Shown here: one piece after another, positions 25,599-49,010 of the stretch | Numbering within the stretch: position 1 is the first letter of the stretch | Layout: the number at the start of each line of letters is the position of its first letter | Assembly: GCA_019058315.1 (NCBI GenBank) | Contig: JAHPZH010000004.1 | Span: forward strand, 192,001-256,000 | Reading direction: 5' to 3' | Length of the DNA stretch: 64,000 nucleotides | DNA from: Candidatus Helarchaeota archaeon | Lineage (GTDB): Archaea > Asgardarchaeota > Lokiarchaeia > Helarchaeales > RDOG01 | Made by a program: the position numbers and the translations under genes | The notes under the pieces: generated by a model | What the model was told of the DNA's origin: nothing | The model's database searches: none | Seen by the model: only the letters and a program-made list of their open reading frames with translations

Positions 25599-25947
25599 TA
25601 TTATTCCGACCTTTTTTAACTAATATAATTATTCCTTTTGCCTTTTTTAACAGATATTTGAAATTCTCATCATTTAAGTCAATAAAATCTCTAATTTCTG
25701 AAGATATTTTAATTCTCCCAATATTATCAACAGTACCAAACACTGATACGTGTTTACCTGGAAGTTCCATAGGTTTTTTTAAGTCTGATTCTTTACGAAA
25801 TTCAATGAAATTCTTTCCGATTTGATATAACTCTTGTAAAAGTGTATCTTTACTAATACCGAGTTCTTCCCGCCATTTTTTTGGCAAGACGATTCGATAT
25901 TTGTCAATTTTTACTTCTTTTTGCTCTAGCTCTTCTGTTGACATCAA
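25588..25947 (-). CDS. Double AbrB/SpoVT-domain (MraZ-like) DNA-binding protein
   Basis: Two units, KIDKYRIVLPKKWREELGI and TVDNIGRIKISSEIRDFIDL. Its end overlaps the start of the 1564-aa gene by 11 nt. Confidence 0.75.
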   Translation of the reverse strand: MMSTEELEQKEVKIDKYRIVLPKKWREELGISKDTLLQELYQIGKNFIEFRKESDLKKPMELPGKHVSVFGTVDNIGRIKISSEIRDFIDLNDENFKYLLKKAKGIIILVKKGRNNNAK

Positions 25948-27118: not shown

Positions 27119-30100
27119 TTAAAAATTATCGTCAATTTTTTCTAAAGTGTCTAAAATTTCTTTTCTTTTCTTAGGATCTAGACCGGCTAATTCCTCTAAT
27201 ATGTCTAGCTTTTCGGATTCGTTAGGAATGTCTAGGTTCATGATTCGAATTATTTCCTCCTTGGATAACATTGTAAATTCTTGTTTGAAAAAGTCCTTAA
27301 GAACTTCATCTTCAACATCGTGTATGGGTACAACTGTTCTTCCAACATCCGGTGTTCTTTTTACAACCTTTTTGGGTTTTCTTCTAGCTATTCCTAAAAT
27401 TATTGCAAATAAACCAACGGCTATTGATGCAAAGACAATTAAGATTAAAATTAAATTATCTCCTGCCCCTACTAGTGGTGGTAGAAAAAGTATACCTTCT
27501 GCTGCTGTAATTGGTGCTATAGCATAATATGAAAGATTTGTGGTAAACCATTCTAAGTAATTTCCAGTAGTATTTAATGTGGCATTTAATTCTATCCACT
27601 TTGTGATATTAAAATAGAATATCCTTAAATCAGTCTCACTAATATTAAGAGCTGATTCGTTATAGTATAATTTCATAGTTGCATTTAATAGTGCTGTTGG
27701 ATTCTGTAAAGTAAATCCAAAAATACCTAAAAAGTCTGGAAGAGAAGTTCCAGTTGGATTACTAGTATAATAACTCATATTTATATTGGTATCAATTGAG
27801 ACAAAAATTCGAAGTTCGCATACTATATTACCTTTAGAGTCTGTTAAGTATACTATATTTTCTTGACCTGCAATAAGTCCTTGTGGAGTGTTATTTGAAT
27901 TCTGTAGAACTGTAAATGTTATTGTCAAATTTTTTCTTAATCCTACTGAATCATTTACTGATATTCTTAATGCAATTAAACCATTTGGAAGATAGCTTGA
28001 GTTGATAAATCTAAAATTACCCCAATTATTTCCACTTGGATCTACAGATAATGTAAAATTGGTATTATTAATAGTGACCGTACTAATTAAGCTTCCCGTT
28101 CCATTTACAAATCCTTCAATTTGATAATTATTTCCTACTTGAATTGTATCATTAAACATTGGGGTAGTTATTTGTATTGTAGGATTGATATTGTCAATAT
28201 AGAACCATCGAGTAGTTAAAGTATTCAATCCCGTAGAATCAGTAACATTTACTAAAATTGAAATAATACCGTCTACGATTATAGTGTTATTTCTAAATTC
28301 ATAAGCACCAGAAGGTGTTCCAGAAGGATCCGTGAAGATTGTGAATCTTGAATCATTAATTAGAACTGATGTAATATTAGACCCAGTACCGTCTACATTA
28401 CCACTAACTGATATTATATTCCCCGTATCAAAATCTCCATTTGAAGCTGGATCTGTAATTATTACAGTTGGGGCAGTATTGTCAATATAAAACCAACGGT
28501 TATTTGTTGTAGTTAAGCCAATAGAATCGGTTACATTAACTAGGACTGATATTAAGCCATCTGTAACAAATGTATTATTTCTAAATTCAAAAACTCCTGA
28601 AATAGAACCTGCGGGGTTGATAAAAAGAGTAAATCTTGAATCGTTAATCATTACTGATATAATATTTGATGCTGTTCCATTTGCAAAGCCAGTAATTGTA
28701 ATTGTATTTCCAGAATCTATTTGACCGTTTGAAATTGGATCTGTAATCGAAATATTTGGTGGAGAATTATCAACTCTAAACCATCTTGTAGTTGAGATTG
28801 TCAAGTTTGCACTATCTGTAATATTGACTTCGATTGAGATTACACCGTCTGAGACATATGAATTATTTGTGAATGTGTAGAAACCAGAAGGGCTTCCCGT
28901 TGGATCGCCTACAAGATTAAATCTAGAATCGTTTATCATAACAGATTGAATATTAGAACCCGTCCCATCTACCCAACCACTTACTAATATAGTGTTACCA
29001 GTAACTACGAGCCCATTTGCAGCTGGATTAATTATTGAAATAGTAGGTAGAGTATTATCAATAATAAACCATCTAACCATGCTATCTATAAGCCCTCCGG
29101 TATTATTAAGGGTCACATTAACTGCTATTATGCCATCCGGGATAAAGCTGTTATTTTCAAAGCCATAATTACCAAATCCAGTTCCAGAAGGGTCGATGGT
29201 AAGAATAAAACGGCTATCATTGATCCAAATAGTATCTATATTAACCCCACCACCATCAGCAGTACCGTTTATTGTTATATTGGTACCTGTGTCAATATCA
29301 CTATTTGCGGTTGGGTGATCTATGGTTACACTTGGACCAATAATATACGTAAACCACCAGATTATAGAATTCGTTAAATTAGCGGAATCGGTTACATTTG
29401 CTTCGACTGATACAGTTCCTAAATTAATGAAACTATTATTAGTAAAGATATAAGGTCCTGAAGCTGTTCCTGCCGGATCTGTAGTCAATATAAACCTTGA
29501 ATCATTAATTTGAACTGAAAGGATGTTAGATCCTGTTCCATCAACTGTTCCCTCAATAGTAACAGAAGATCCACTATCCGTTGTTCCATTTGGAAAAGGG
29601 TTAGTTATGGCAATTGTCGGATTTGTATTATCGAGATTAAACCACCTTGATAATGAAGTTGTTAAACTAGCAGTATCTGTGACATTAACAGTAATTGAAA
29701 TGATGCCATCTGGAATATATGTATTGTTATTAAATGCATAGTTTCCTGAAGGAGAACCTGTCGGATCAACTACAATAGTAAATCTGGAATCATTAATCAT
29801 TAATGATAGGATGTTAGACCCGGTACCATCTGCAGTCCCATTTACCCATATGTCAACTCCTGTATCAACATCGCCATCCGAAGCAGGATCAGCAATTGAA
29901 ATCATAGGATAAGTGTTATCAATATCAAACCATCTTGTTGCAAAATCTGTTAGATTTGCACTGTCTGTTACGTTGACTTCAACTGCTATATTACCATCTG
30001 GAATATAGGAATTGTTATTAAATGCATAGCTTCCTGATGGGGAGCCTGATGGATCAATGAAGATTGTAAATCGGGAGTCATTAATCATTACGGAAAGAAT

Positions 30101-33100
30101 ATTTGAACCAGTCCCATCAGTTGTTCCATTTATCCAGATAATCGCACCTGTATCCATGTCTCCATCAGAAGTTGGATCTGTTATTGAAATAGTGGGATCA
30201 GTATTGTCAATATCAAACCATCGAGTAGTAGAAGTTGTTAATCCTGCCGTATCGGTGACATTAACTAATACTCCAATATTTCCATCAGCAAGAAAAGTGT
30301 TATTGCGAAATTCATAAGCTCCAGAAGGAGTTCCTGATGGATCAGTGAAAATAGTAAATCGTGAATCATTAATCATGACTGATACTATATTAGAACCGGT
30401 ACCATCTGTGTTACCACTTACTGATATTATAGCTCCGGTATCAATATCTCCATCAGATGTGGGATCTGTAATTGTAATTGTAGGATTGGTGTTGTCTATA
30501 TCAAACCATCTTGTAGTAGATGTGGTCAAACCTGCAGAATCGGTTACATTAACTAAAATTGCTATATTTCCATCAGGAATTAATGTGTTATTTCTAAATT
30601 GATATGCCCCTGAGGGAGTTCCAGAAGGATTTATGAAAATAGTAAATCTAGAATCATTAATCATAACTGATACAATATTAGTACCAGTTCCATTTACATT
30701 GCCGCTTATTGAAATAATGGTTCCTGTATCTATATCACCATCTGATGCGGGATCTGTTATTGAAATAGTCGGATAGGTGTTATCTATATCAAACCATCTT
30801 GTAGTAGAAACGGTCAAGCCTGCAGAATCTGTCACATTAACAAGAACTCCGATATTTCCGTCTGGTATGAATGTGTTATTTCTGAATTCATAGGCTCCAG
30901 AAGGAGTACCCGAAGGATCCGTGAAAATAGTGAATCGAGTATCATTAATCATGACTGATACTATATTAGATCCAGTTCCATTGGCATTACCGCTGACTGA
31001 TATTATTATACCAGTATCAATAACTCCATCAGAAGCAGGATCCGTGATTGAAATGGTTGGATAGGTGTTATCTATATCAAACCAGCGAGTTATTGATATC
31101 GTTAGAGGTGCGGAATTAGTCACATTAACCTCGATAGCAACATTTCCATCTGGGATGTATGTGTTGTTTCGAAATTCATACGGTCCTGAGAGAGAACCAG
31201 AGGGATCTGTAAAAATAGTAAATCTAGAATCATTTATCATGACTGATATTATGTTTGAACCAGTTCCATCCGCATTACCGCTTATTGATATTATGGCTCC
31301 TGAATCTACATCTCCATTAGAAGCAGGATCTGTAATTGTAATGGTTGGATAGGTATTGTCTATATTAAACCATCGGGTTGTAGAAGTGGTTAAACCAGCA
31401 GAATCAGTAACATTTACTAGAACTCCAATATTTCCATCTGGAATGAATGTATTATTTCTAAATTCATAAGCCCCAGAAGGAGTTCCAGAAGGATCTGTGA
31501 AAATAGTGAATCGAGAATCATTAATCATAACTGATAAGATATTAGATCCGGTCCCATCAGCATTACCGCTTACTGAAACTATGGCTCCTGAATCTACAGC
31601 TCCATCGGAAGCAGGATCCGTGATTGAAATGGTTGGGTAAGTATTGTCAATGTCAAACCAGCGAATAGCAGAAGTGGTTAAACTGGCGGAATCAGTTACA
31701 TTTACCAAAATTGCAATATTTCCATCGGGAATAAATGAATTGTTTCTAAATTCATATGCACCAGAAGGAGTCCCCGAAGGATCCGTGAAAATAGTAAATC
31801 GTGAATCATTTATCATTACAGAGGCAATATTAGATCCAGTTCCATCAGCATTACCGCTTATGGATATTATGGTTCCCGTATCTATATCTCCATCAGATGC
31901 AGGATCGATAATTGAAATGGTTGGATAAGTATTATCAATATCAAACCAGCGCGTTGTAGAAGTGGTTAAACCCGCAGAATCTGTAACATTAACAAGAACC
32001 CCAATATTTCCGTCTGGAATGAATGTGTTATTTCTAAATTGATAAGCCCCAGAAGGAGTCCCCGAAGGATCCGTGAAAATAGTAAATCGAGAATCATTTA
32101 TCATTACAGAGGCAATATTAGATCCAGTTCCATCAGCGTTTCCACTTACGGATATAATTGCACCCACATCAACATCTCCATCTGATACAGGATCGGTAAT
32201 TGTAATTGTTGGAAGGGTGTTATCTATATCAAACCAGCGAGTCGTTGAAGTAGTTAAACCTGCAGAATCAGTTACATTTACAAGAATTCCGATATTTCCA
32301 TCAGGAATAAATGTGTTATTTCTAAATTCATATGCACCCGAAGGAGAACCCGAAGGATCTGTAAAGATAGTAAATCGTGAATCATTAATCATTACAGAAA
32401 CTATGTTAGAGCCAGTTCCATCTGCATTTCCACTGATTGAAATAATTGCTCCAGTATCAATATCTCCGTTCGATGCAGGATCGGTAATTGTAATTGTTGG
32501 AAGGGTGTTATCTACATCAAACCAGCGAGTCGTTGAAGTAGTTAGACCTGCAGAATCAGTTACATTTACAAGAATTCCGATATTTCCATCAGGAATAAAT
32601 GTGTTATTTCTAAATTCATATGCACCCGAAGGAGAACCCGAAGGATCTGTAAAGATAGTAAATCGTGAATCATTAATCATTACAGAAACTATGTTAGAGC
32701 CAGTTCCATCTGCATTTCCACTGATTGAAATAATTGCTCCAGTATCAATATCTCCGTTCGATGCAGGATCGGTAATTGTAATTGTTGGAAGGGTGTTATC
32801 TACATCAAACCAGCGAGTCGTTGAAGTAGTTAGACCTGCAGAATCAGTTACATTTACAAGAATTCCGATATTTCCATCAGGAATAAATGTGTTATTTCTA
32901 AATTCATATGCACCCGAAGGAGAACCCGAAGGATCTGTGAAGATAGTAAATCGTGAATCATTAATCATAACAGATACGATATTAGATCCGGTCCCATCGG
33001 CGTTACCACTTATGGATATTATGGTTCCTGTATCTATATCACCATCTGATGCAGGATCTGTTATTGAAATAGTCGGATAAGTATTATCTATATCAAACCA

Positions 33101-36100
33101 TCGAGTTGTAGAAGTGGTTAAACCTGCAGAATCAGTTACATTTACAAGAATTCCGATATTTCCATCAGGAATAAATGTGTTATTTCTAAATTCATATGCA
33201 CCCGAAGGAGAACCCGAAGGATCTGTGAAGATAGTAAATCGTGAATCATTAATCATAACAGATACGATATTAGATCCGGTCCCATCGGCGTTACCACTTA
33301 TGGATATTATGGTTCCTGTATCTATATCACCATCTGATGCAGGATCTGTTATTGAAATAGTCGGATAAGTATTATCTATATCAAACCATCGAGTTGTAGA
33401 AGTGGTTAAACCTGCAGAATCAGTTACATTCACCAAGATTCCAATATTACCATCTGGGATGAATGTGTTATTTCTAAATTCATAAGCTCCCGAGGGAGTC
33501 CCTGAAGGATCAGTGAAAATGGTGAACCGAGAATCATTAATCATAACAGAAGCAATATTAGAGCCAGTTCCATCAGCATTTCCACTTACGGAAATAATTG
33601 CACCCGTATCTATATCCCCATCTGATGAAGGATCAGTAATTGAAATTGTAGGATAGGTATTATCTATATCAGCCCATCGTGTGGTAGAAGTTGTCAAGCT
33701 TGCAGTATCGGTCACATTTACCATGATAGCAATATTACCGTCTGGTATAAATGTATTATTTCTAAATTCATAAGCCCCAGAAGGAGTTCCCGAAGGATCT
33801 GTGAAAATGGTGAACCGTGAATCATTAATCATTACTGATACAATATTAGATCCGGTCCCATCTGCATTGCCACTTATAGATATTATAGCTCCTGTATCAA
33901 CATCTCCATCTGAAGCAGGATCGGTAATTGTAATGGTTGGATATGTGTTGTCTATGTCAAACCAGCGCGTAGTAGGTGTAGTTAAACCAGCAGAGTCAGT
34001 TATATTAACTTTAATACCTATATTTCCATCTGGAATGTACGAATTGTTATTAAATGCATAGCTGCCTGATGGGGAACCTGATGGATCAATGAAGATTGTA
34101 AATCGGGAATCATTAATCAAAACAGATATAATATTAGAACCAGTGCCATCCACTGTCCCATTAATCCAAATAATGGCTCCTGTGTCAATGTCTCCATCAG
34201 AAGCAGGATCATTTATAGTGATAGTTGGGTAGATATTATCGACATCAAACCAGCGTGTAGCAGAAGATGTCAAACTAGCAGAATCTGTCACATTAACTTC
34301 GATAGCAATATTTCCTTCAGTAATATAAGAATTATTATTAAATGCGAAGCTTCCTGATGGAGAACCTGAGGGATCTGTGAATATCGTAAATCTAGAATCA
34401 TTAATCAAAACAGATACAATATTGGAGCCTGTACCATCCACTGTCCCGTTAATCCAGATAATAGTTCCTGTGTCAACATCTCCATTAGATGCGGGATCGT
34501 TAATTAAAATTGAAGGATTTGTATTATCTAGATTGAGCCAGCGTATAGCAGCAGATGTTAAACTAGCAGAATCCGTAATATTAACTTCGATTGAGATAAT
34601 TCCATCTGCTACATAAGAATTATTATTAAATGCGTAGTTTCCGGAAGGAGATCCAGATGGATCTATGATAAGTGTGAATCTGGAATCGTTAATCATCACA
34701 GAAGTAATATTTGAACCTGTTCCATCTACTGTTCCGTTTATCCAGATATCAGTGCCTGTAACTAAATCTCCATTTGAAGCAGGAACAGTAATTGAAATTG
34801 TGGGATATGTATTATCAATATCAAACCAACGAGTAGTTGAGACGGTCAAGTTAGCAGTATCTGTAATATTTACCTCAACCGCTATATTTCCATCTGGAAT
34901 GTAAGAATTATTATTGAACGTATAAATTCCGGAAGCAGATCCTGAAGGATCAACTGCTATAGTAAACCTCGAGTCATTTATCATAACTGATTGAATATTA
35001 GAACCAGTTCCATTTACAAATCCACTAATCGAAATAGTAGCTCCAGTATCTATATCGCCATCTGAAGTTGGATCCGTTATTGAGATTGTTGGATATGTAT
35101 TATCAATAATAAACCATCGAATTCTGTAATCTGAAAGGCCTCCTGAATTATTTAAGGTTATAGTAATAGCAACACGACCATCAGGAATAAAACTAATATT
35201 TTGAAATCCATAAACTCCGGATGGACTTCCAGAAGGATTAACTGTCAAAATAAATCGACTATCATTAATCCAAACTTGATCGATATTAGTCCCACCACCA
35301 TCAGCTGTTCCATTTATTGTAATATCAATTCCTGTATCTATAGCACTATCTGGAGAGGGATGATCAACGGTTACACTAGGCCCAATAATATATGTAAACC
35401 ATCGGGCTATAGAACCAGTTAATCCCACCGAATCGGTAACATTTACTTTAACCGCAACATTTCCAAGGGTAATAAAGCTATTATTACTAAAAGTAAAGGG
35501 ACCTGAAGAGCTTCCTACAGGATTTGTTGTTAAAGTAAATCTGGAATCATTTATTTGAACTGAGAAAATATTAGTTCCTGTTCCATCAACCCATCCATCG
35601 ACAGTAACACTACCCCCAGTATCGGTTGTACCATTTGGAAAGGGATGAGTTATAACAATAGTAGGATTTGTATTATCTAATATAAACCATCGAATCGCAG
35701 AAGTGGTTAAATAAGCAGAATCCGTGACATTAACCTCAATTGCAATAGTCCCATCTGTGATTAAGGTGTTATTATTAAATGCATAATTTCCTGATGGACT
35801 CCCTGATGGATCAGTGAAAATAGTGAATCGGGAATCATTAATCATTACAGACGAAATATCGGAACCTGTACCATCAGCTGTTCCATTTATCCATATAATG
35901 GCTCCTGTATCTAAATCTCCATTCGACGCTGGATCGGCAATTGAAATAGTAGGATAAGTATTGTCAATATCAAACCATCGTGTAGTAGAAGTAGTTAAGC
36001 CAGCAGTATCAGTAACATTTACGAGAACTCCTATATTTCCATCAGCAAGGTAAGTGTTATTTCTGAATTCATAAGCACCAGAAGGGGATCCTGAAGGATC

Positions 36101-39100: not shown

Positions 39101-42100
39101 ATCAGTTATTGAAATGGTGGGATAAGTGTTATCTATATCAAACCATCGTGTAGTAGAAGTAGTCAAACCAGCAGAATCTGTTATATTTACTAGAATTCCA
39201 ATATTGCCGTCAGCAAGAAAAGTATTATTTCTGAATTCATACGCCCCCGAGGGAGTTCCGGACGGATCTGTGAAAATAGTAAATCTAGAATCATTGATCA
39301 TGACCGAAACAATATTAGTTCCAGTTCCATCTGCATTTCCGCTAACTGATATTATAATACCAGTATCAATATCACCATCTGATGCGGGATCGGTTATAGA
39401 TATTGTAGGATAGGTGTTATCTATATCAAACCATCTTGTTGCTGAAGTAGTTTGACTTGCAGAATCTGTTACATTAACGAGAATTGCGATATTTCCATCG
39501 GGAATGAAAGTATTATTACGAAATTCATAGGCTCCAGAGGGAGTTCCTGATGGATCTGTAAAGATAGTAAATCTAGAATCATTAATCATTACAGATACGA
39601 TATTAGAACCTGTCCCATCCGCATTTCCACTTATAGATATAATTGCTCCAGTATCGACATCTCCATCAGAAGTGGGGTCAATAATCGATATTGTAGGATA
39701 AATATTATCAACATCAAACCATCGTGTGGTTGAAGTTATCAAGCCTGCGGAATCAGTTATATTTACAAGTACCCCGATGTTTCCATCTGAAATAAAAGTG
39801 TTATTTCTAAATTCATAAGCTCCCGAAGGACTACCCGAAGGATCTGTAAAGATAGTAAATCGAGAATCATTAATCATAACAGAGACAATATTTGACCCAG
39901 TCCCATCTGCATTTCCACTTATTGAGATAATAGCACCAGTATCTATATCACCGTCAGAAGCAGGATCTGTAATAGTAATTGTAGGATCTGTATTGTCTAT
40001 ATCAAACCATCTCGTGGTTGAAGTAGTTTGAGCTGCAGAATCAGTAACATTCACTAGGATCCCAATATTTCCATCTGGGATGAAAGTGTTATTCCTGAAT
40101 TCATAAGCTCCCGAGGGAGATCCGGAAGGATCTGTGAAAATAGTGAATCGAGAATCATTAATCATGACGGAAACAATATTAGATCCGGTTCCATCTGCAT
40201 TACCACTGATAGATATAATCGCACCAGTATCAATATCACCATCAGAAGTAGGGTCAGTTATAGAAATCGTAGGATATATGTTATCAATATCGAACCATCG
40301 TGTTGTTGATGTGGTTAAACCCGCAGAATCCGTCACATTTACTAAAACTGCAATATTACCGTCTGGTATAAATGTGTTATTCCTGAATTCATAAGCTCCA
40401 GAAGGAGATCCCGAAGGATCAGTGAAAATAGTGAATCGAGATTCATTAATCATTACTGATGCAATATTAGATCCAGTTCCATCAGCATTACCGCCTATTG
40501 ATATAATGGTTCCAGTATCTATATCACCATCAGAAGCAGGATCTGTTATTGAAATAGTGGGATCAGTATTGTCAATATCAAACCATCGAGTAGTAGAAGT
40601 TGTTAAACTAGCTGAATCTGTCACATTGACGAGAATTCCAATATTTCCGTCTGGTATGAATGTGTTATTTCTAAATTCATAAGCTCCAGAAGGAGAACCC
40701 GAAGGATCTGTAAAAATTGTAAATCGTGAATCATTTATCATAACAGAGACTATATTAGAACCAGTGCCATCGGCATTACCGCTTATTGATATAATGACCC
40801 CAGTGTCTACATCTCCATCCGAAGCAGGATCAGTAATAGTTATTGTAGGATTGGTATTGTCTATGTCAAACCACCTTGTAGCAGATGTTGTTAATCCTGC
40901 AGAATCGGTTACATTTACCAAAATTGCGATATTTCCATCAAGAATTAAGGTGTTGTTTCTAAATTCATACGCTCCTGAGGGAGTTCCAGACGGATCTGTG
41001 AATATAGTAAATCGAGAATCATTAATCATGACAGACGCTATATTAGATCCAGTACCATCTGTATTGCCGCTTATTGATATAATGGTCCCAGTATCTATAT
41101 CTCCATCAGATGCAGGATCGGTTATTGAAATGGTTGGATAAGTATTGTCTATATCAAACCAACGAGTTGTTGATGTGGTTAAGCTTGCGGAATCAGTCAC
41201 ATTAACAAGAACTGCTACATTTCCGTCTGGAATGAATGTATTATTTCGAAATTCATAAGCTCCAGAAGGAGAACCCGAAGGATCTGTAAAAATTGTGAAT
41301 CGTGAATCATTAATCATAACTGAGACTATATTAGAACCAGTGCCATCGGCATTACCACTTATTGATATAATGACTCCAGTATCTATATCTCCATCCGAAG
41401 CAGGATCAGTAATAGTTATTGTAGGATTGGTATTGTCTATGTCAAACCACCTTGTAGCAGATGTTGTCAATCCTGCAGAATCGGTTACATTTACCAAAAT
41501 TGCGATATTTCCGTCGGGAATGAATGTATTGTTTCTAAATTCATATGCACCAGAAGGAGTTCCCGATGGATCAGTAAAGATCGTAAATCGTGAATCATTA
41601 ATCATAACAGAAGCTATATTAGATCCAGTGCCATCCGCATTTCCACTTATTGATATAATGGTCCCAGTATCTATATCTCCATCAGATGCAGGATCAGTTA
41701 TTGAAATGGTTGGATAAGTATTGTCTATATCAAACCAACGAGTTGTTGATGTGGTTAAGCTTGCGGAATCAGTCACATTAACAAGAACTGCTACATTTCC
41801 GTCTGGAATGAATGTATTATTTCGAAATTCATATACTCCTGAAGGCGTTCCCGAAGGATCAATAAAGATTGTGAATCGTGAATCATTAATCATAACTGAA
41901 ACTATATTAGAACCAGTACCATCCACATTTCCACCTATTGATATAATAGTACCTGTATCAATATCACCATCAGAAGCAGGATCTGTTATTGAAATAGTGG
42001 GATCAGTATTGTCAATATCAAACCATCGAGTAGTAGAAGTTGTTAAACTAGCTGAATCTGTCACATTGACGAGAATTCCAATATTTCCGTCTGGTATGAA

Positions 42101-45100
42101 TGTGTTATTTCTAAATTCATAAGCTCCAGAAGGAGATCCTGAAGGATCTGTAAAAATTGTAAATCTAGAATCATTAATCAAAACAGATACGATATTAGAA
42201 CCAGTGCCATCGGCATTTCCACTGATTGAAATAATAGTACCTGTATCAATATCTCCATCAGATGCAGGATCTGTAATTGTTATGGTTGGGTATGTATTGT
42301 CAATATCAAACCATCTAGTTGCAGAGGTTGTCAAGCTTGCAGAATCAGTCACATTCACTAGGATTGCAACATTTCCGTCCGGAATAAATGTGTTATTTCT
42401 AAATTCATATGCACCAGAAGGAGTCCCTGATGGATCTGTAAAAATTGTAAAACGAGAATCATTTATCATTACTGATACAATGTTAGAACCTGTTCCATCC
42501 ACATTACCGCCAATTGAGATGGTGGTCCCAGTATCTATATCACCGTCCGATGCCGGATCTGTAATTGAAATGGTAGGATAGGTATTGTCTATATCAAACC
42601 ATCTTGTGGTAGAAGTTGTCAAGCTAGCGGAATCGGTTACATTAACTAGGATGGCAATATTACCGTCTGGGATGAATGTATTATTTCTAAATTCATAAGC
42701 TCCAGAGGGACTGCCCGAAGGATCAGTAAAGATAGTAAATCTAGAATCATTAATCATAACAGAAACTATGTTAGAGCCAGTTCCATCTGCATTACCACTG
42801 ATTGAAATTATCACCCCAGTATCAATATCTCCATCAGAAGCTGGATCTGTGATTGAAATGGTAGGATAGGTATTGTCTATATCAAACCATCGAGTAGTAG
42901 AAGCAGTTAGACTAGCTGAATCCGTCACATTGACGAGAATTCCAATATTTCCGTCCGGAATGAATGTGTTATTTCTAAATTCATAAGCTCCAGAGGGACT
43001 GCCCGAAGGATCAGTAAAGATAGTAAATCTAGAATCATTAATCATAACAGAAACTATGTTAGAGCCAGTTCCATCTGCATTACCACTGATTGAAATTATC
43101 ACCCCAGTATCAATATCTCCATCAGAAGCTGGATCTGTGATTGAAATGGTAGGATAGGTATTGTCTATATCAAACCATCGAGTAGTAGAAGCAGTTAGAC
43201 TAGCTGAATCCGTCACATTGACGAGAATTCCAATATTTCCGTCCGGAATGAATGTGTTATTTCTAAATTCATAAGCTCCAGAGGGACTGCCCGAAGGATC
43301 AGTAAAGATAGTAAATCTAGAATCATTGATCATAACAGAAACAATATTAGATCCCGTGCCATCTGCATTTCCGCTTATTGAAATAATAGCTCCAGTATCA
43401 ATATCTCCGTCTGAAGCTGGATCGGTAATTGAAATGGTTGGATAAGTATTGTCTATATCAAACCATCGAGTCGTTAATGTGGTTAAGCCTGCAGAATCAG
43501 TTACATTAACAAGAACTCCAATATTTCCGTCCGGTATGAATGTGTTATTTCTAAATTCATAAGCTCCAGAAGGAGATCCCGAAGGATCTGTAAAAATTGT
43601 AAAACGGGAATCGTTGATCATGACTGATACGATATTGGAACCAGTACCATCAGCATTTCCACTAATTGAAATAATGGTCCCAGTATCAATATCTCCATCA
43701 GAAGCAGGATCTGTTATTGTTATTGTTGGATATGTATTATCTATATCAAACCATCGTGTTGTTGATGTGGTTAAACCCGCAGAATCCGTCACATTTACTA
43801 GAACTGCAATATTACCGTCTGGTATAAATGTGTTATTCCTGAATTCATAAGCTCCAGAAGGAGATCCCGAAGGATCTGTAAAAATTGTAAAACGAGAATC
43901 ATTTATCATTACTGATAAAATATTAGATCCAGTACCATCGGCGTTTCCACTAATTGAGATAATAACACCAGTATCTATATCACCGTCTGATGCGGGATCT
44001 GTTATTGTTATTGTAGGATCTGTATTATCTATATCAAACCAGCGTGAAGCGGTTGTTGTTAAGCTCGCTTGGTCAGTTACATTAACTTGAATTGCCACAT
44101 TTCCATCGGGGATATATGTATTATTTCTAAATTCATAAGCTCCAGAAGGAGATCCCGAAGGATCTGTAAAAATTGTAAAACGGGAATCGTTGATCATGAC
44201 TGATACGATATTGGAACCAGTACCATCAGCATTTCCACTTATTGATATAATAGCTCCAGTATCTATATCACCATTTGAAGCTGGATCAGTTATTGTTAAG
44301 GACGGAAGTGTATTATCTATATCAAACCATCGAGTAGCGGATGTTGTTAATCCGGCTGTATCTGTTACGTTCACTAGAATTGCGACATTCCCATCAGGAA
44401 TAAAAGTATTATTTCGGAATTCATATGCTCCTGAAGGAGTTCCTGAAGGATCTGTAAAAATTGTAAAACGAGAATCATTTATCATTACTGATACAATATT
44501 TGAACCTGTTCCATCAGCGTTGCCGCTTACGGAAATTATAGCCCCCGTATCTATATCTCCATCAGATGCGGGATCTGTTATTGATATCGTAGGTGGTGTA
44601 TTATCTATATAGAACCAGCGAATAATAGAAGAAGTTAAACCTGATGAATCTGTAATATTTATTTTAATTGCAATATATCCGTCTGCAATATAAGATGAAT
44701 TTCTAAATTCATAATTTCCGGAAAGGCTTCCTGAGGGATCCAGAAATATATTAAAATTAGAATTATTAATCTGAATAGATGTGATTTCAGTTCCGGTTCC
44801 ATTGGCAAATCCACTGATTGAAATTATAACCCCCGTATCAATGGAACCATTAGATGCGGGATCTGTAACTGTAATAGTAGGATTAATCGAATCCATAATT
44901 ACCCAAATCATGAAAGACCCATTATTTCTTGCATAATCTTGTGCAACGACTGTTATATTGTTCCAACCTTCAACCAAGTTAATATTTTGAACAGTGGATG
45001 TACCTGTATATTGAATTGATCCATTTCTAATGACTTCATAAACTTTAATTCCACTTTCAGAATCGTAACTACTTGTCCAATTTACTTGGACAGAGGCTGC

Positions 45101-47464
45101 AGATGTATTCAATTTATCAACAGGACTATCGATGATGACTGTTGGATTTGTATTATCTGAGCTTACATTCCAATAAATAATTTCAGATCGACTTTTATAA
45201 CCTAACTTTGAAGAAGTAATGTTAATTTCATAAATATTATCTAAAGTAAAATCCGAATAGTTAAGTTGGATATAATACGTCTCATTGGTTGCATGCCATA
45301 GGAAATTTCCATCTTGACCTGTCATATTACTATTATAAGTTACATTTGCATTTGTAATATTAAGACCAGTTTTCAAATCGATATATTGTACTATTATAGT
45401 GAGATTAAATGGCTCAAAATTACTCGTTATTGTAGTGCTAGGTTCCAATCGAATTAAACTTGTATTATAAATCAGTGAAAAAGTATTATTTATAGACGCA
45501 TTGTTATACCATGCTTTAGAAGCATTAATTACAACTTTATATGAACCATTTACAAAGTTATTTGTGGATAATGTATAATTATAATATCCGGAACTTAGAC
45601 TTTCCGTGAGGTTATCTTGCAAGACAAGAGATGAATCAGTCTCATTAAATATTTGAATTGTAAGGTTTGCTTCTGTTATTGGTGAATTAGTATGAGTATC
45701 ATTGTAAAACACAGTGACATTCAAATCGACTCCAATTAAATGGACGCCACTAACCTCACCTAAGTCATCAAAGCTTAGATTTGTGGAATTAACTACAAAT
45801 AAGTAAGTTTGATTTATTGCTGAATAAGATTCATTAGTCCAAATAATTTGAACAGTATAATTTCCTGTCTCTGTTGAAGCAGGAACGGTTACATTGAATA
45901 AAACGAAATCTACGAGTGTAGAACTATTAATTGTTGTCCAATCGGAAGTAACATCGTCATTAGTAGTATTATATATTGATAAATTCATTATACCATTAGA
46001 AAATCCACTAACAGAAGTATTTATTTGTATATTTTCTCCATGAATATAAGCTCGAGAATTATATGATGATGTAACTGCAGATTGGTTTAAAGATATTAAT
46101 ATTGTTTGTGTTGGACTCCTAAAAGTAAATTTCCAGAGACCTTCGGTTAAAATATCGTTGGTGTTATTTGATAAATATACAATGTTGTTCTGTTCAATTA
46201 TACCATTGGTAACATTTACATCTGAAGAATTTAATGCTAAAATCATATTCCAACTTGATAATGGTTTGGAAAGGGTAACCGAAAAATTACTTAAAGACTC
46301 TCCATATGAAGCTGTTGGAGCGGATACTGAAAAATTAGTTTTCCAATAACTCCACAACTCTCCAAGAGAAATATTATGTTTTATATTAGTAGTTTGTGTC
46401 AAATTAACATTTATAGATGTCCATGTCAGATTACATGAAAAACTAGAATTTGTGGATATTGTTATTGATTTGTTTTCTCCGTCATTATCTGCAAAATTGA
46501 AATTATAGGTAGTACTATTAACATCATGAACGGTACTATCTATCGTCATGTTCATATCGATATCTTCTGGGTTCATATTTGTAAGAGTGTTATTCGAAGA
46601 ATCGATATAAACTGTTTTTAGTTTTAATGACATATCTTGTGTATTTATTTGACTCCAGACTCCAACATACTGATATAGATAACCCTCATCAACGTTATCT
46701 CCTCCATTAAAAGTTGTATCCCAATTATAAAACCAATGAACACCAGTGGTTCCTGGGATACTATCTACTAAATTAGTTGCGTTAATCACAAAATAATAAA
46801 ATCCTGCTGTCAAATTAACGTTAATATTACTAAACACATTCCATGTAGTAGTTCCAAATTGGCCAGTCCTCGAACTATTCCATAATAGTGCTTGTGGTGC
46901 ATTTCCAACTCCTGTAGAATTCCAAATCTCAATGTCATAATATCCTGAAAAAAGTATCAGGTAACCATATAAGCTAATATCAGTGATTCTAGAATCTCTC
47001 GAGAGGATAAAAGACATTGCGTAAGGAGAAGAACTACTACTAAGAATATATTTAAGAGTACTAAAATTTTGTTCAACATCCCTCCAAGTAGATTCTGCAG
47101 AAATATTCTGTATATTAATTTCATAATTGGTACGGTTATAGTCTGTGGGAACAGTTACATCGAATTGACGTTCATTGTCACCAGCTGGAGATTCAGGACC
47201 TGTTGCGTTTATTACATTACTTACTAACCAATTTAAATAAGTTTTATTTGAATAACTTGTCTGTGTGACATTTAGACCATTTCGTGTACCATTTGCATAA
47301 TCCTTAGTAATCTCATTAAAGGTTTTTGATTTAAAATTTAATTTTTCCAATAAATTCAATGGAATTGGAGATTCTGAGTTATATTGATTATAATTTAAAA
47401 TCGCCAAATAAGGTGAAGTTAGTATGATAATAAAAATAATGATTTTAATAGGAATTTTTCGCAA
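27119..47464 (-). CDS. Giant single-pass cell-surface glycoprotein (6781 aa), paralog of 20904..25598, with about 59 Ig-like repeats and a helical cytoplasmic tail
   Basis: Uninterrupted 20.3-kb ORF; signal peptide; shared head (KYILSSSSSPYAMSF..SRDSRITDIS); TM LILILIVFASIAVGLFAIILGIA followed by RRK; about 88-aa tail. Confidence 0.93.
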   Translation of the reverse strand: MRKIPIKIIIFIIILTSPYLAILNYNQYNSESPIPLNLLEKLNFKSKTFNEITKDYANGTRNGLNVTQTSYSNKTYLNWLVSNVINATGPESPAGDNERQFDVTVPTDYNRTNYEINIQNISAESTWRDVEQNFSTLKYILSSSSSPYAMSFILSRDSRITDISLYGYLILFSGYYDIEIWNSTGVGNAPQALLWNSSRTGQFGTTTWNVFSNINVNLTAGFYYFVINATNLVDSIPGTTGVHWFYNWDTTFNGGDNVDEGYLYQYVGVWSQINTQDMSLKLKTVYIDSSNNTLTNMNPEDIDMNMTIDSTVHDVNSTTYNFNFADNDGENKSITISTNSSFSCNLTWTSINVNLTQTTNIKHNISLGELWSYWKTNFSVSAPTASYGESLSNFSVTLSKPLSSWNMILALNSSDVNVTNGIIEQNNIVYLSNNTNDILTEGLWKFTFRSPTQTILISLNQSAVTSSYNSRAYIHGENIQINTSVSGFSNGIMNLSIYNTTNDDVTSDWTTINSSTLVDFVLFNVTVPASTETGNYTVQIIWTNESYSAINQTYLFVVNSTNLSFDDLGEVSGVHLIGVDLNVTVFYNDTHTNSPITEANLTIQIFNETDSSLVLQDNLTESLSSGYYNYTLSTNNFVNGSYKVVINASKAWYNNASINNTFSLIYNTSLIRLEPSTTITSNFEPFNLTIIVQYIDLKTGLNITNANVTYNSNMTGQDGNFLWHATNETYYIQLNYSDFTLDNIYEINITSSKLGYKSRSEIIYWNVSSDNTNPTVIIDSPVDKLNTSAASVQVNWTSSYDSESGIKVYEVIRNGSIQYTGTSTVQNINLVEGWNNITVVAQDYARNNGSFMIWVIMDSINPTITVTDPASNGSIDTGVIISISGFANGTGTEITSIQINNSNFNIFLDPSGSLSGNYEFRNSSYIADGYIAIKINITDSSGLTSSIIRWFYIDNTPPTISITDPASDGDIDTGAIISVSGNADGTGSNIVSVMINDSRFTIFTDPSGTPSGAYEFRNNTFIPDGNVAILVNVTDTAGLTTSATRWFDIDNTLPSLTITDPASNGDIDTGAIISISGNADGTGSNIVSVMINDSRFTIFTDPSGSPSGAYEFRNNTYIPDGNVAIQVNVTDQASLTTTASRWFDIDNTDPTITITDPASDGDIDTGVIISISGNADGTGSNILSVMINDSRFTIFTDPSGSPSGAYEFRNNTFIPDGNIAVLVNVTDSAGLTTSTTRWFDIDNTYPTITITDPASDGDIDTGTIISISGNADGTGSNIVSVMINDSRFTIFTDPSGSPSGAYEFRNNTFIPDGNIGVLVNVTDSAGLTTLTTRWFDIDNTYPTISITDPASDGDIDTGAIISISGNADGTGSNIVSVMINDSRFTIFTDPSGSPSGAYEFRNNTFIPDGNIGILVNVTDSASLTASTTRWFDIDNTYPTISITDPASDGDIDTGVIISISGNADGTGSNIVSVMINDSRFTIFTDPSGSPSGAYEFRNNTFIPDGNIGILVNVTDSASLTASTTRWFDIDNTYPTISITDPASDGDIDTGVIISISGNADGTGSNIVSVMINDSRFTIFTDPSGSPSGAYEFRNNTFIPDGNIAILVNVTDSASLTTSTTRWFDIDNTYPTISITDPASDGDIDTGTTISIGGNVDGTGSNIVSVMINDSRFTIFTDPSGTPSGAYEFRNNTFIPDGNVAILVNVTDSASLTTSATRWFDIDNTYPTITITDPASDGDIDTGTIISISGNADGTGSNIVSVLINDSRFTIFTDPSGSPSGAYEFRNNTFIPDGNIGILVNVTDSASLTTSTTRWFDIDNTDPTISITDPASDGDIDTGTIISIGGNVDGTGSNIVSVMINDSRFTIFIDPSGTPSGVYEFRNNTFIPDGNVAVLVNVTDSASLTTSTTRWFDIDNTYPTISITDPASDGDIDTGTIISISGNADGTGSNIASVMINDSRFTIFTDPSGTPSGAYEFRNNTFIPDGNIAILVNVTDSAGLTTSATRWFDIDNTNPTITITDPASDGDIDTGVIISISGNADGTGSNIVSVMINDSRFTIFTDPSGSPSGAYEFRNNTFIPDGNVAVLVNVTDSASLTTSTTRWFDIDNTYPTISITDPASDGDIDTGTIISISGNTDGTGSNIASVMINDSRFTIFTDPSGTPSGAYEFRNNTLILDGNIAILVNVTDSAGLTTSATRWFDIDNTNPTITITDPASDGDVDTGVIISISGNADGTGSNIVSVMINDSRFTIFTDPSGSPSGAYEFRNNTFIPDGNIGILVNVTDSASLTTSTTRWFDIDNTDPTISITDPASDGDIDTGTIISIGGNADGTGSNIASVMINESRFTIFTDPSGSPSGAYEFRNNTFIPDGNIAVLVNVTDSAGLTTSTTRWFDIDNIYPTISITDPTSDGDIDTGAIISISGNADGTGSNIVSVMINDSRFTIFTDPSGSPSGAYEFRNNTFIPDGNIGILVNVTDSAAQTTSTTRWFDIDNTDPTITITDPASDGDIDTGAIISISGNADGTGSNIVSVMINDSRFTIFTDPSGSPSGAYEFRNNTFISDGNIGVLVNITDSAGLITSTTRWFDVDNIYPTISIIDPTSDGDVDTGAIISISGNADGTGSNIVSVMINDSRFTIFTDPSGTPSGAYEFRNNTFIPDGNIAILVNVTDSASQTTSATRWFDIDNTYPTISITDPASDGDIDTGIIISVSGNADGTGTNIVSVMINDSRFTIFTDPSGTPSGAYEFRNNTFLADGNIGILVNITDSAGLTTSTTRWFDIDNTYPTISITDPTADGVTDTGTIISISGNVDGTGSNIISVMINDSRFTIFTDPSGTPSGAYEFRNNTFIADGNIGVLVNVTDSAGLTTSATRWFDIDNTYPTISITDPTSDGDIDTGVIISISGNADGTGSNIASVMINDSRFTIFTNPSGTPSGAYEFRNNTFLADGNIGVLVNVTDSAGLTTSTTRWFDIDNTYPTISIIDPASNGDIDTGAIISVSGNSDGTGSNIASVMINDSRFTIFTDPSGSPSGAYEFRNNTFIPDGNIGVLVNVTDSAGLTTSTTRWFDIDNTLPTISITDPASDGDIDTGVIISISGNADGTGSNIASVMINDSRFTIFTDPSGTPSGAYEFRNNTFIPDGNIGVLVNVTDSAGLTTSTTRWFDIDNTLPTISITDPASDGDIDTGVIISISGNADGTGSNIASVMINDSRFTIFTDPSGSPSGAYEFRNNTFIPDGNIGVLVNVTDSAGLTTSATRWFDIDNTLPTISITDPASDGDIDTGVIISISGNADGTGSNIVSVMINDSRFTIFTDPSGSPSGAYEFRNNSYIPDGNIGVLVNVTDSASLTASTTRWFDIDNTYPTISITDPASDGDIDTGAIISISGNADGTGSNIVSVMINDSRFTIFTDPSGTPSGAYEFRNNTFIPDGNIGVLVNVTDSAGLTTSTSRWFDIDNTYPTISIIDPASDGDIDTGNIISISGNADGTGSNIVSVLINDSRFTIFTDPSGTPSGAYEFRNNTYLADGNVGILVNVTDSAGLTTSNTRWFDIDNTYPTISITDPASDGDIDNGAIISVGGNADGTGSNIASVMINDTRFTIFTDPSGTPSGAYEFRNNTFIPDGNIGVLVNVTDSAGLTTSTTRWFDIDNTYPTITITDPASDGDIDTGAIIFISGNADGTGSNIISVMINDSRFTIFTDPSGSPSGAYEFRNNTFIPDGNVAVLVNVTDSASLTTSTTRWFDVDNTYPTISITDPVSDGDVDTGAIISISGNADGTGSNIVSVMINDSRFTILTDPSGSPSGAYEFRNNTYLADGNIGVLVNVTDTAGLTTSTTRWFDIDNTYPTISIADPASNGDLDTGAIIWINGTADGTGSDISSVMINDSRFTIFTDPSGSPSGNYAFNNNTLITDGTIAIEVNVTDSAYLTTSAIRWFILDNTNPTIVITHPFPNGTTDTGGSVTVDGWVDGTGTNIFSVQINDSRFTLTTNPVGSSSGPFTFSNNSFITLGNVAVKVNVTDSVGLTGSIARWFTYIIGPSVTVDHPSPDSAIDTGIDITINGTADGGGTNIDQVWINDSRFILTVNPSGSPSGVYGFQNISFIPDGRVAITITLNNSGGLSDYRIRWFIIDNTYPTISITDPTSDGDIDTGATISISGFVNGTGSNIQSVMINDSRFTIAVDPSGSASGIYTFNNNSYIPDGNIAVEVNITDTANLTVSTTRWFDIDNTYPTISITVPASNGDLVTGTDIWINGTVDGTGSNITSVMINDSRFTLIIDPSGSPSGNYAFNNNSYVADGIISIEVNITDSASLTSAAIRWLNLDNTNPSILINDPASNGDVDTGTIIWINGTVDGTGSNIVSVLINDSRFTIFTDPSGSPSGSFAFNNNSYITEGNIAIEVNVTDSASLTSSATRWFDVDNIYPTITINDPASDGDIDTGAIIWINGTVDGTGSNIISVLINDSRFTIFIDPSGSPSGSYAFNNNSYIPDGNIGIKVNITDSAGLTTPTTRWFDIDNTYPTITITDPASDGDVDTGAIISISGNADGTGSNIVSVMINDSRFTIFTDPSGTPSGAYEFRNNTFIPDGNIAIMVNVTDTASLTTSTTRWADIDNTYPTISITDPSSDGDIDTGAIISVSGNADGTGSNIASVMINDSRFTIFTDPSGTPSGAYEFRNNTFIPDGNIGILVNVTDSAGLTTSTTRWFDIDNTYPTISITDPASDGDIDTGTIISISGNADGTGSNIVSVMINDSRFTIFTDPSGSPSGAYEFRNNTFIPDGNIGILVNVTDSAGLTTSTTRWFDIDNTYPTISITDPASDGDIDTGTIISISGNADGTGSNIVSVMINDSRFTIFTDPSGSPSGAYEFRNNTFIPDGNIGILVNVTDSAGLTTSTTRWFDVDNTLPTITITDPASNGDIDTGAIISISGNADGTGSNIVSVMINDSRFTIFTDPSGSPSGAYEFRNNTFIPDGNIGILVNVTDSAGLTTSTTRWFDVDNTLPTITITDPASNGDIDTGAIISISGNADGTGSNIVSVMINDSRFTIFTDPSGSPSGAYEFRNNTFIPDGNIGILVNVTDSAGLTTSTTRWFDIDNTLPTITITDPVSDGDVDVGAIISVSGNADGTGSNIASVMINDSRFTIFTDPSGTPSGAYQFRNNTFIPDGNIGVLVNVTDSAGLTTSTTRWFDIDNTYPTISIIDPASDGDIDTGTIISISGNADGTGSNIASVMINDSRFTIFTDPSGTPSGAYEFRNNSFIPDGNIAILVNVTDSASLTTSAIRWFDIDNTYPTISITDPASDGAVDSGAIVSVSGNADGTGSNILSVMINDSRFTIFTDPSGTPSGAYEFRNNTFIPDGNIGVLVNVTDSAGLTTSTTRWFNIDNTYPTITITDPASNGDVDSGAIISISGNADGTGSNIISVMINDSRFTIFTDPSGSLSGPYEFRNNTYIPDGNVAIEVNVTNSAPLTISITRWFDIDNTYPTISITDPASDGVIDTGIIISVSGNANGTGSNIVSVMINDTRFTIFTDPSGTPSGAYEFRNNTFIPDGNIGVLVNVTDSAGLTVSTTRWFDIDNTYPTISITDPASDGDIDTGTIISISGNVNGTGTNIVSVMINDSRFTIFINPSGTPSGAYQFRNNTLIPDGNIAILVNVTDSAGLTTSTTRWFDIDNTNPTITITDPTSDGDIDTGAIISVSGNTDGTGSNIVSVMINDSRFTIFTDPSGTPSGAYEFRNNTFLADGNIGVLVNVTDTAGLTTSTTRWFDIDNTDPTISITDPTSDGDMDTGAIIWINGTTDGTGSNILSVMINDSRFTIFIDPSGSPSGSYAFNNNSYIPDGNIAVEVNVTDSANLTDFATRWFDIDNTYPMISIADPASDGDVDTGVDIWVNGTADGTGSNILSLMINDSRFTIVVDPTGSPSGNYAFNNNTYIPDGIISITVNVTDTASLTTSLSRWFNLDNTNPTIAITNPFPNGTTDSGSSVTIEGTVDGTGSNILSVQINDSRFILTTDPAGTASGPYIFTNNSFINLGTVSVEANVTDSANLTNSIIWWFTYIIGPSVTIDHPTANSDIDTGTNITINGTADGGGVNIDTIWINDSRFILTIDPSGTGFGNYGFENNSFIPDGIIAVNVTLNNTGGLIDSMVRWFIIDNTLPTISIINPAANGLVVTGNTILVSGWVDGTGSNIQSVMINDSRFNLVGDPTGSPSGFYTFTNNSYVSDGVISIEVNITDSANLTISTTRWFRVDNSPPNISITDPISNGQIDSGNTITITGFANGTASNIISVMINDSRFTLFINPAGSISGVFEFRNNTFVTDGLISVLVNVTDSIGLTTTNNRWFYIDNTAPTVIITDPASNGDFDTGNIISVSGNVDGTGSNITSVLINDSRFTIFTDPSGTPSGAYEFRNNTIIVDGIISILVNVTDSTGLNTLTTRWFYIDNINPTIQITTPMFNDTIQVGNNYQIEGFVNGTGSLISTVTINNTNFTLSVDPSGNNWGNFRFINSSYLPNGLIALRISVNDSVGLRKNLTITFTVLQNSNNTPQGLIAGQENIVYLTDSKGNIVCELRIFVSIDTNINMSYYTSNPTGTSLPDFLGIFGFTLQNPTALLNATMKLYYNESALNISETDLRIFYFNITKWIELNATLNTTGNYLEWFTTNLSYYAIAPITAAEGILFLPPLVGAGDNLILILIVFASIAVGLFAIILGIARRKPKKVVKRTPDVGRTVVPIHDVEDEVLKDFFKQEFTMLSKEEIIRIMNLDIPNESEKLDILEELAGLDPKKRKEILDTLEKIDDNF
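27905..44893 (-). repeat. About 59 tandem ~288-bp (96-aa) Ig-like coding repeats
   Basis: Span of about 17.0 kb divided by 288 bp. Same unit as in the short paralog, with several variant units. Confidence 0.93.
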
Positions 47465-47636
47465 AATTCATCCGACCTAAAAAGTAAATTATATCAAGTT
47501 ATATTACATCATTGAATTTAAATTATAAAACAAGAAAAATATAAAAATATTTATTTAATATTGAAAATCTAATATATCAAAATTAAGTAATTTTTAAAAA
47601 TAAGAAACAATAAATAAATTTTAAGAAATTAAAGAG

Positions 47637-49010
47637 TTATTTAAGAGCTTCTCTCAAACTAGCTAATTCTTTGAGATTTCTCATCCTCTCAACTTCTTCT
47701 AAATATTGCTTAGCTTCTGTCATTTCACCAATTTCTACAGATAGCTTTGAAGCTTGATCAAACAACATTGCAGCTTCATCGTATTTTCCACCAATTTCCA
47801 TTGTTTTTGCTTTATTAATAATCTCATTTCGTTCTTGTCTTAATCGTGGAATTCGTGAACGCATTTCCTGTGCGGTTTGACTAAAGAGCTGGGCACGTTC
47901 TGCAAATTCTTGAGCGACTATATTTTCGTATAATTGAGTAGAAAGTCCCGAAATACTAGATAATAATTGTGCAGCAGTACCAAAATCATCTCTTTTTACT
48001 GAATCATCCAGTTGAGAAAAAAGAATCTTCCTTTCTTCACGTATCCTTTTCCTGTTTTCAATTTCTGCACTAAGTTGCTCCGTTAGCTTTTTTTTAGGGA
48101 ATTGCTGAATTCTATCTAGAAAAGTTTTTCTACTATCTTCCGTAGAAACTAATAAATCTTCCAAAATTAAATTTTTATTTTCATTAGATAATGTCTTAAT
48201 TTCTGACATTTGATCCCATAGCATTCTACGTTCTGCGGATTGAGCTACTTGTTCTATATCTATAGCTATAAATAATCCTTTGTCATTTAGACCAAAAATT
48301 GCCTTTACAATCTTATCTCGGGGCATTTTTGTTTTTTTAATAACTTCCTCAATGAGTCTAGCTGTAAAAAAGAAACCTCTTTCTTTAGAAAGGTCTTTCG
48401 CGACTTTCATTATTGAATTTTCTGCTGAATTAAGTTTTGCCTGTTTTATAATTTCAGGATCCATTGGTAAAATTATGGGCTTAATTAAAAACAAATTGAA
48501 GTGTGTATCAACCAAATCTTTGGCTGGAGCAAAATCACTTACTTTTCCCGAGAACTCATCAATATATCGTTTAAATTTTCTATTAAAATCTTCTGCAAAT
48601 GTAGTAAGAGATTGCTTGATAGGATCGGAAGGATCGGATTCAAGCATTACTGCGACCATTACATCTTCCGTATCTGCAATACAGATTTGGAATTGTTCCA
48701 TTGGATATGTATAAAGTACACAAGTGGTTCCTGCCATTTCTTCGGTTATATCGGCACTTTTTGGTTTTTTCTTCTCGTCTTTCTTCTTTTTCTTTTCGTC
48801 TTCTCTTCTTTCCTTTTCTTCTTCCTTTTTCCTCTTCTCGTCTTCCTTTTTTCTTAATTTTTCTTCTTTTTTATTGTCTTTCTTTTTATCGACTTTCTCT
48901 TTTTTATCCTCTTTTTTGTCGTCTTTTTTGTCATCTTTTTTTTTCTTGTCTTCTGGAATCGTGGGTTTTTGGAAAGGTATAAACCTTGGAGTTCTTCGGG
49001 GTCGTGCCAT
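47637..49010 (-). CDS. Cytoplasmic multidomain protein: R/P leader, K/E/D linker, C-half longin-like, winged helix, helical motif, TPR-like C-terminus
   Basis: MARPRRTPRFIPFQKPTIPEDKKK; FQICIADTEDVMVAVMLESDPS...L..FAEDF..KF...F.GKVSDF; GKYDEAAMLFDQASKLSVEIG. SD AGGAG. Confidence 0.8.
   Translation of the reverse strand: MARPRRTPRFIPFQKPTIPEDKKKKDDKKDDKKEDKKEKVDKKKDNKKEEKLRKKEDEKRKKEEEKERREDEKKKKKDEKKKPKSADITEEMAGTTCVLYTYPMEQFQICIADTEDVMVAVMLESDPSDPIKQSLTTFAEDFNRKFKRYIDEFSGKVSDFAPAKDLVDTHFNLFLIKPIILPMDPEIIKQAKLNSAENSIMKVAKDLSKERGFFFTARLIEEVIKKTKMPRDKIVKAIFGLNDKGLFIAIDIEQVAQSAERRMLWDQMSEIKTLSNENKNLILEDLLVSTEDSRKTFLDRIQQFPKKKLTEQLSAEIENRKRIREERKILFSQLDDSVKRDDFGTAAQLLSSISGLSTQLYENIVAQEFAERAQLFSQTAQEMRSRIPRLRQERNEIINKAKTMEIGGKYDEAAMLFDQASKLSVEIGEMTEAKQYLEEVERMRNLKELASLREALK

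Follow-up and report, generated by a model that had tools for sequence, protein, structure and literature searches.

A small helical element probably shared by a giant archaeal surface protein and a neighbouring adaptor, and its likely docking on winged-helix domains

The stretch of 64,000 nucleotides (nt) analyzed here (the window; contig JAHPZH010000004.1, positions 192,001 to 256,000) comes from a genome of a Candidatus Helarchaeota archaeon (5.79 Mb, ~30% G+C) and encodes a giant surface protein, whose cytoplasmic tail contains a 24-residue motif that is matched in a separate protein of 457 amino acids (aa), here called the adaptor or P0001. The two segments probably belong to one small helical element, as judged from comparison of the enlarged families, and this element most likely docks on winged-helix (WH) domains and not on itself. 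What is new is the family-level tie between the tail module of the giant and a hairpin that follows a WH domain in receptor tails of the longin-WH-TPR kind. The features involved are listed below in window coordinates.

27119-47464 (-): giant surface protein of 6781 aa that starts with TTG (open reading frame (ORF) list and terminal translations)
27386-27454 (-): sole, C-terminal transmembrane (TM) helix of the giant, aa 6671-6693 (sequence)
27122-27355 (-): cytoplasmic tail module of the giant, helices H1-H4, aa 6704-6781 (E 4e-31 to the hidden Markov model (HMM) of its paralogues and 1e-18 to the broad HMM; AlphaFold2 (AF2) model; 166 public clusters)
27143-27214 (-): the giant's copy of the shared motif (aa 6751-6774), inside the helix 3-loop-helix 4 part of its tail module
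47637-49010 (-): adaptor P0001, 457 aa (ORF; four close homologues; AF2 model)
48108-48179 (-): shared motif in the adaptor, aa 278-301, on helices 276-287 and 291-301 (hhalign to tail H3-H4)

The region 108-444 of the adaptor recurs as the C-terminal ~330 aa of proteins of 1100-2250 aa in a sister family, and in one of these, a protein of 1895 aa, the tail HMM matches at the exact positional equivalent of the adaptor motif. We found such a match at the motif position in 19 of 20 sister-family adaptor-like regions (9-24 bits), against a noise level of at most 11.5 bits among the ORFs of the source genome; reversed controls reached at most 11.0 bits and shuffled ones at most 2.4 bits (0 of 25 at 12 bits or more). 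In the alignment with the orthologues, ENKNLILEDLLVSTEDSRKTFL of the adaptor is in register with EEKQKLVNDLAQMGPAEREAYL. Comparison of the tail with the enlarged adaptor family by hhalign yielded 76.6% (E 2e-5), and comparison of the broad tail alignment with that same family a probability of 91.6% (E 8e-7) over 37 columns, against 1.1% for the reversed control. The register is the one proposed in an earlier note on this DNA, which had also named a profile-profile comparison as the check on its proposal; after enlargement of both families that comparison is significant. Conserved in both families are a Lys, a hydrophobic pair, an acidic residue, a Leu and an Ala, followed by P..R..aromatic/L. 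Considering the positional matches in 19 of the 20 regions and the 91.6% obtained with hhalign, set against the failing controls, a shared element is very probable. The adaptor hairpin by itself (aa 273-303) gave no significant match to the broad tail-family HMM (3.9 bits, E=21, rank 116 of 22,907 ORFs); given that it is internal, covers only H3-H4 and scores low, it represents a related element and not a member of the family.

The motif pair taken on its own resembles at chance level. The segments EKLDILEELAGLDPKKRKEILDTL of the giant and NKNLILEDLLVSTEDSRKTFLDRI of the adaptor do lie where the earlier note had placed them, fit K-x2-ILE[DE]L-x7-RK-x2-LD with equal spacing and are identical at 9 of 24 positions. 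Nevertheless, the pair scores 28 with BLOSUM62 and the best 24-residue segment 32, against a mean of 33 +/- 5.5 for shuffled tails, 85% of which reach an equal or better 24-residue score against the adaptor. BLASTP reported no match between tail and adaptor, of the 43 ORFs in the window that span 150 aa or more five others match the tail equally well or better, and the pattern, which was derived from both sequences, fits 1 of 10 tail paralogues. An HMM built from the tails of these ten paralogues gave E=26 for the adaptor, and tail HMMs rank it about 116-160 of 22,907 ORFs (E=21-26). With narrow profiles, hhalign of the tail family against five adaptor orthologues gave 5-6%, and the single adaptor sequence ranked near the 92nd percentile among 450 random ORFs. 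Column-shuffle controls constitute too lenient a null. Such values are what one would see if the match reflected chance or convergence between amphipathic helix-turn-helix (HTH) pieces rich in Lys, Glu and Leu in a genome of 30% G+C, with no common origin or function: every pair-level statistic as well as the narrow profiles agree with this, and hhalign is known to yield false hits from short helical matches. However, the recurrence of the match at one position in 19 of 20 homologues with failing reversed and shuffled controls, the result of the broad profiles (91.6%, E 8e-7) and the fact that the conserved charged positions coincide too, beyond the hydrophobic ones, speak against it, and we consider chance unlikely. 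As this case illustrates, confirmation of a motif match that stays at chance level within one genome is possible only when both families are enlarged.

The tail of the giant is a previously undescribed C-terminal module of ~65-80 aa and four helices. In the giant, the single TM helix (aa 6671-6693) is followed by a cytoplasmic tail of 88 aa, which includes the module (aa 6704-6781), and other membrane proteins, 556-3682 aa in length, end in paralogues of the last ~80 aa. With the broad HMM, the module was recovered in the source genome on 14 large membrane proteins and one ORF of 82 aa. Within the phylum, 59 of 201 sampled genomes have it, as have 39 of 40 from one sister family; in that family it occurs at the end of multi-pass proteins of ~520-590 aa or alone as ORFs of 72-92 aa. 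A search of 1.84 billion representatives yielded 166 public clusters that carry the module, nearly always at or near the C-terminus. The AF2 model of the last 80 aa places helices at 19-29, 34-41, 48-59 and 63-79, with a predicted local distance difference test (pLDDT) score of 85-89 over residues 31-80. No family in Pfam or NCBIfam matches the tail or the core of the adaptor, and Foldseek against the PDB gave no match to the tail with E<=0.001 (rows resembling three-helix, protein-A-like folds had E>1). ORFs of 59-130 aa consisting of the module only account for 37 of the best 150 public clusters and occur in many sister-family genomes; the source genome has one at C5:22389-22634 (-). These free-standing copies could be competitors or regulators of a contact between tail and WH domain.

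The constant genomic partner of the tail module is a WH protein of a family denoted P2, which at the giant is represented by P0002, encoded 56 bp downstream.

26215-27060 (-): P0002, 281 aa, N-terminal peptide, Lys/Glu-rich linker and seemingly three WH-type units, P2 family (PF24266; paralogues beside tail genes; predicted complex)
26719-26898 (-): WH1 of P0002, aa 55-114, main predicted docking surface for the tail

P0002 matches PF24266 (HVO_0163 N-terminal HTH) over aa 122-184 with 34.7 bits, above the cut-off of 31, and its long paralogues do so with 39-59 bits; the family also matches profiles of the ArsR/MarR type. A literature search on HVO_0163 returned unrelated proteomics only. In the source genome, a P2-family neighbour was found at all 14 large tail genes, and for 13 of the 15 P2-family genes a tail-bearing gene is no more than 400 bp away. 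Likewise, a P2-type WH gene follows 17 of 19 tail loci in the sister family. Tails and partners have co-diverged in two subfamilies (Mantel r=0.79, p=0.0002), a correlation that points to co-duplication of tails and partners and not to binding.

Binding is addressed by structure prediction. For the core of P0002 with the tail, the interaction prediction score from aligned errors (ipSAE) was 0.80 (0.81, 0.78 and 0.80), whereas the best of three controls scored 0.01. Of 80 solved complexes 58 attain this mark, as do 2 of 110 mismatched pairs, a calibration that is rough here, as custom alignments were used. The prediction runs had at least 75% of the contacts in common, and pLDDT of the partner was at least 76. 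In the predicted interface, WH1 of P0002 (core residues 9-60, with the wing at 52-58) meets tail residues 24-32, 40-46, 50-60 and 69-77, and 11 of the 24 motif residues of the giant take part in it. Docking of the tail on WH1 is thus supported, not shown, by the predicted complex. A common HTH origin of the tail and the P2 family was considered as well and is unsupported (hhalign 4.4%).

The second, divergent subfamily of tails and P2 proteins comprises four pairs (source genome, C3:603329-613664, C5:562233-570047 and C7:168313-170730). Three of the partners measure 707-730 aa and one 236 aa, and the long ones have ear-like and longin-type C-terminal parts. Matches of long P2 proteins to GAE_BBS1 (E 0.01-0.07) stay under the cut-off and represent a weak adaptin-ear-like resemblance.

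The architecture of the adaptor connects the hairpin to a second surface protein. The additional features are:

48495-48704 (-): aa 103-172 of the adaptor, the C-terminal half of a longin-type domain (hhalign to the domain at the C-terminal end of long P2 proteins, probability 96%, E 3e-9)
48261-48434 (-): adaptor WH domain, aa 193-250, possibly related to P2 WH1 (hhalign probability 45-54%, E 1-2e-4; model)
20904-25598 (-): surface protein of 1564 aa with immunoglobulin (Ig)-like domains, in which the last ~65 aa, the cytoplasmic tail (about nt 20907-21100), constitute the N-terminal half of that longin-type domain (hhalign probability 97%, E 9e-11)

In the AF2 model, the adaptor starts with a disordered N-terminus, a Lys/Glu-rich helix and a beta-rich part (89-180), continues with a winged helix (195-250, three helices and a strand) and helices 252-269, 276-287 and 291-301, the last two forming the motif, and ends in long TPR/MIT-like helices. 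The stretch aa 193-272 resembles WH1 of the P2 proteins (hhalign 45-54%). Pfam gave no match to aa 85-260, Foldseek against the PDB none to the adaptor with E<=0.001, and a search of the atlas turned up no clusters other than generic ones and those of Promethearchaeota. The earlier note had tied the adaptor to the 1564-aa protein through a split longin (a name taken from that note and from the passages on such domains in PMC10936438), and this link is real: the N-terminal half on the tail of the 1564-aa protein and the C-terminal half in the adaptor were recovered by hhalign with 97% and 96%, respectively, and the two parts are adjacent or fused in relatives. More explicitly, in relatives at the level of the order the gene directly upstream of the adaptor orthologue codes for a surface protein with a half-longin tail, whereas in the sister family the surface-protein part and the adaptor part form one polypeptide of 1100-2250 aa (split-longin loci L047, L048, L049 and L055). 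The adaptor therefore represents the cytoplasmic part of a second receptor in detached form. True orthologues of the adaptor are confined to the same family or order, and one close homologue bears the label Candidatus Helarchaeota. The one fused form examined had no P2 neighbour in its surroundings of 13 kb.

Based on the above, we favour with moderate confidence an explanation in which the shared segment is a diverged receptor-tail hairpin that docks on WH domains both in trans and in cis. It would be a copy, since diverged, of the final helix-loop-helix (H3-H4 or perhaps H2-H4) in the Asgard receptor-tail module, a four-helix cytoplasmic domain at the end of many single-pass surface proteins. 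In trans, the tail of the giant would bind WH1 of the triple-WH protein P0002. In cis, given that the adaptor hairpin directly follows a possible WH1-like domain, it may pack on the latter, and the tail-WH1 contact would then exist in fused form. The adaptor is in this view a separated receptor part whose half longin completes that of the 1564-aa protein, and the sister family has the whole array on a single polypeptide, with ectodomain, TM helix, longin, WH domain, hairpin and TPR-like helices. Downstream, the contact might serve to tether a WH regulator or scaffold at the membrane or to release it.

Several observations weigh against this explanation. Against the tail HMM, the hairpin of the adaptor in the source genome reaches no more than 3.9 bits and those of the other stand-alone adaptor orthologues -1.5 to 9.1 bits; the ancestral function may have been lost from the diverged hairpin of the source genome's adaptor. 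The match obtained with hhalign is all-helical and short (37 columns), a class that is prone to false positives, and a rival alignment puts the adaptor hairpin on the HTH of WH2 of P2. The likeness of the adaptor to WH1 is only ~50% probable. Furthermore, the strongest predicted contacts of the tail are made by its H1/strand segment (24-32), for which the profile alignments place no equivalent in the adaptor, and the predicted complex is a prediction and no measurement.

A different use of the same elements would be exchange in trans, in which the tail of the giant binds the WH domain of the adaptor, or the adaptor hairpin binds WH1 of P0002, such that the two receptors compete for partners or hand them over. 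The adaptor indeed holds both types of element, the N-terminal peptide that only P0002 and the adaptor have in common (see below) suggests a common destination, and the free module copies of 59-130 aa are possible competitors. Yet the wing of the adaptor WH domain is three residues shorter than that of P2 WH1, the wing being the part that makes the best predicted contacts, and the adaptor hairpin has diverged. We consider this exchange rather unlikely.

The earlier note itself had interpreted the motif as a small homotypic interaction domain, through which the adaptor would bind the giant and bridge it to the 1564-aa protein. The presence of the hairpin element in both proteins, the split longin and the location of all five genes (P0001, the giant, P0002, an AbrB/MazE-like gene and the gene of the 1564-aa protein) on the minus strand in a single cluster are in line with it; however, there is no indication that the element is homotypic, as the constant partner of the module is a WH protein that is predicted to bind it, and the bridge is unsupported, as the adjacency of adaptor and giant is not conserved and the adaptor family is single-copy in the source genome next to 14 large tail genes, so that we regard it as very improbable. 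Adaptor orthologues in the relatives examined adjoin no gene with the tail module: in a genome of the same family no giant, tail or P2 gene was found within 19 kb of the orthologue, and on a related metagenome contig no giant homologue was found downstream of it before the contig ends ~2 kb on. In one relative, a giant homologue (L031:6606-7829 (-)) does adjoin the adaptor orthologue, P0005, and its pre-TM domain is 61% identical, the two genes being convergent. Its cytoplasmic tail is Lys/Glu-rich, ~250 aa long and lacks the module, yet P0005 has retained the hairpin.

WH docking of the receptor-tail hairpin can be compared with several known systems. Membrane-anchored regulator pairs include anti-sigma factors with their extracytoplasmic function (ECF) sigma factors and sensor/winged-helix repressor pairs of the BlaR1-BlaI type. 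By analogy only, these resemble the present pairs in that many paralogous single-pass membrane proteins are encoded adjacent to, and co-diverge with, a small cytoplasmic HTH protein. They differ in that there is no relation in sequence or fold, no protease, kinase or sigma domain occurs here, surface proteins of huge size with Ig repeats serve as the membrane partners and DNA binding by P2 is only putative. WH domains of the ESCRT-II type bind short helices of partner proteins. The use of tandem WH domains as docking surfaces for a helical element offers a general analogy, whereas the P2 proteins match PF24266 and profiles of the ArsR/MarR type.

According to the passages concerned in PMC10936438 (Makarova et al. 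2024, mBio), wH domains are building blocks of Asgard ESCRT, and Asgard archaea possess multidomain proteins that contain Vps28-C, adaptin appendage and longin domains in addition to HTH/PCI, TPR and Ig domains. The long P2 proteins (707-761 aa) are like the proteins described there in that they join winged helices to a C-terminal longin-type domain and show weak adaptin-ear-like Pfam matches, and the adaptor has the longin half and possibly the WH1 of these long P2 proteins. The passages on these proteins in that paper show no receptor tail module, no pairing with surface genes and no hairpin after the WH domain. Our literature searches for a system of receptor tail and winged helix found none described, which is no proof that none exists. 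Asgard archaea encode many eukaryote-like parts (longin, adaptin-ear-like, Vps28-like and WH/ESCRT-II-like), and with regard to their physical partners a small conserved receptor tail with an adjacent WH protein that is predicted to dock on it constitutes a concrete, expressible and testable binding pair, the more so as the tail-WH contact is apparently also present fused within one polypeptide. By extension, a portable WH-docking hairpin could allow cytoplasmic WH partners to be shared or exchanged between the giant and the split 1564-aa/457-aa receptor and, together with longin complementation, constitute a kinase-free hub that leads from the surface to gene control or proto-trafficking, a proposal that we consider quite improbable.

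Two further features of the cluster are:

48936-49010 (-): N-terminal peptide of the adaptor, RPRRxPR[FY]IPF..., common to P0002 alone
25588-25947 (-): gene of an AbrB/MazE-like protein (SpoVT-type) of 119 aa, between P0002 and the gene of the 1564-aa protein, with an overlap of 11 nt with the latter

The peptide, M[AE]RPRRxPR[FY]IPFQKPxIPEDKKKK, is followed by a Lys/Glu-rich linker and occurs genome-wide only in the two proteins that flank the giant, P0001 (48936-49010 (-)) and P0002 (26986-27060 (-)). The N-terminal regions of the two are 58% identical over 59 aa. Given that this region is missing from the other P2 paralogues, P0002 looks like a chimera with the 5' end of the adaptor gene. 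The P2 proteins of the sister family have a different conserved N-terminal peptide, MSLEKRRE...FRRLDFTPL. In addition, P2 matches in the sister family often contain one or two in-frame stops (TAA, TAG, TGA), which may point to pseudogenes, to a joining of neighbouring genes in the search or to another cause.

Finally, VIA matched the C-terminal part of the adaptor (aa 386-457; 47640-47855 (-)) to the MIT domains 2crb and 2w2u with Z 9.3-9.5 (root-mean-square deviation 1.4-4.9 over 63-78 residues), against a helical-bundle level of ~13. The best small-domain matches of this three-helix bundle are the MIT domains of NRBF-2, Sulfolobus Vps4, MITD1 and LIP5, with Z values (8.9-9.5) that lie within the helical background.

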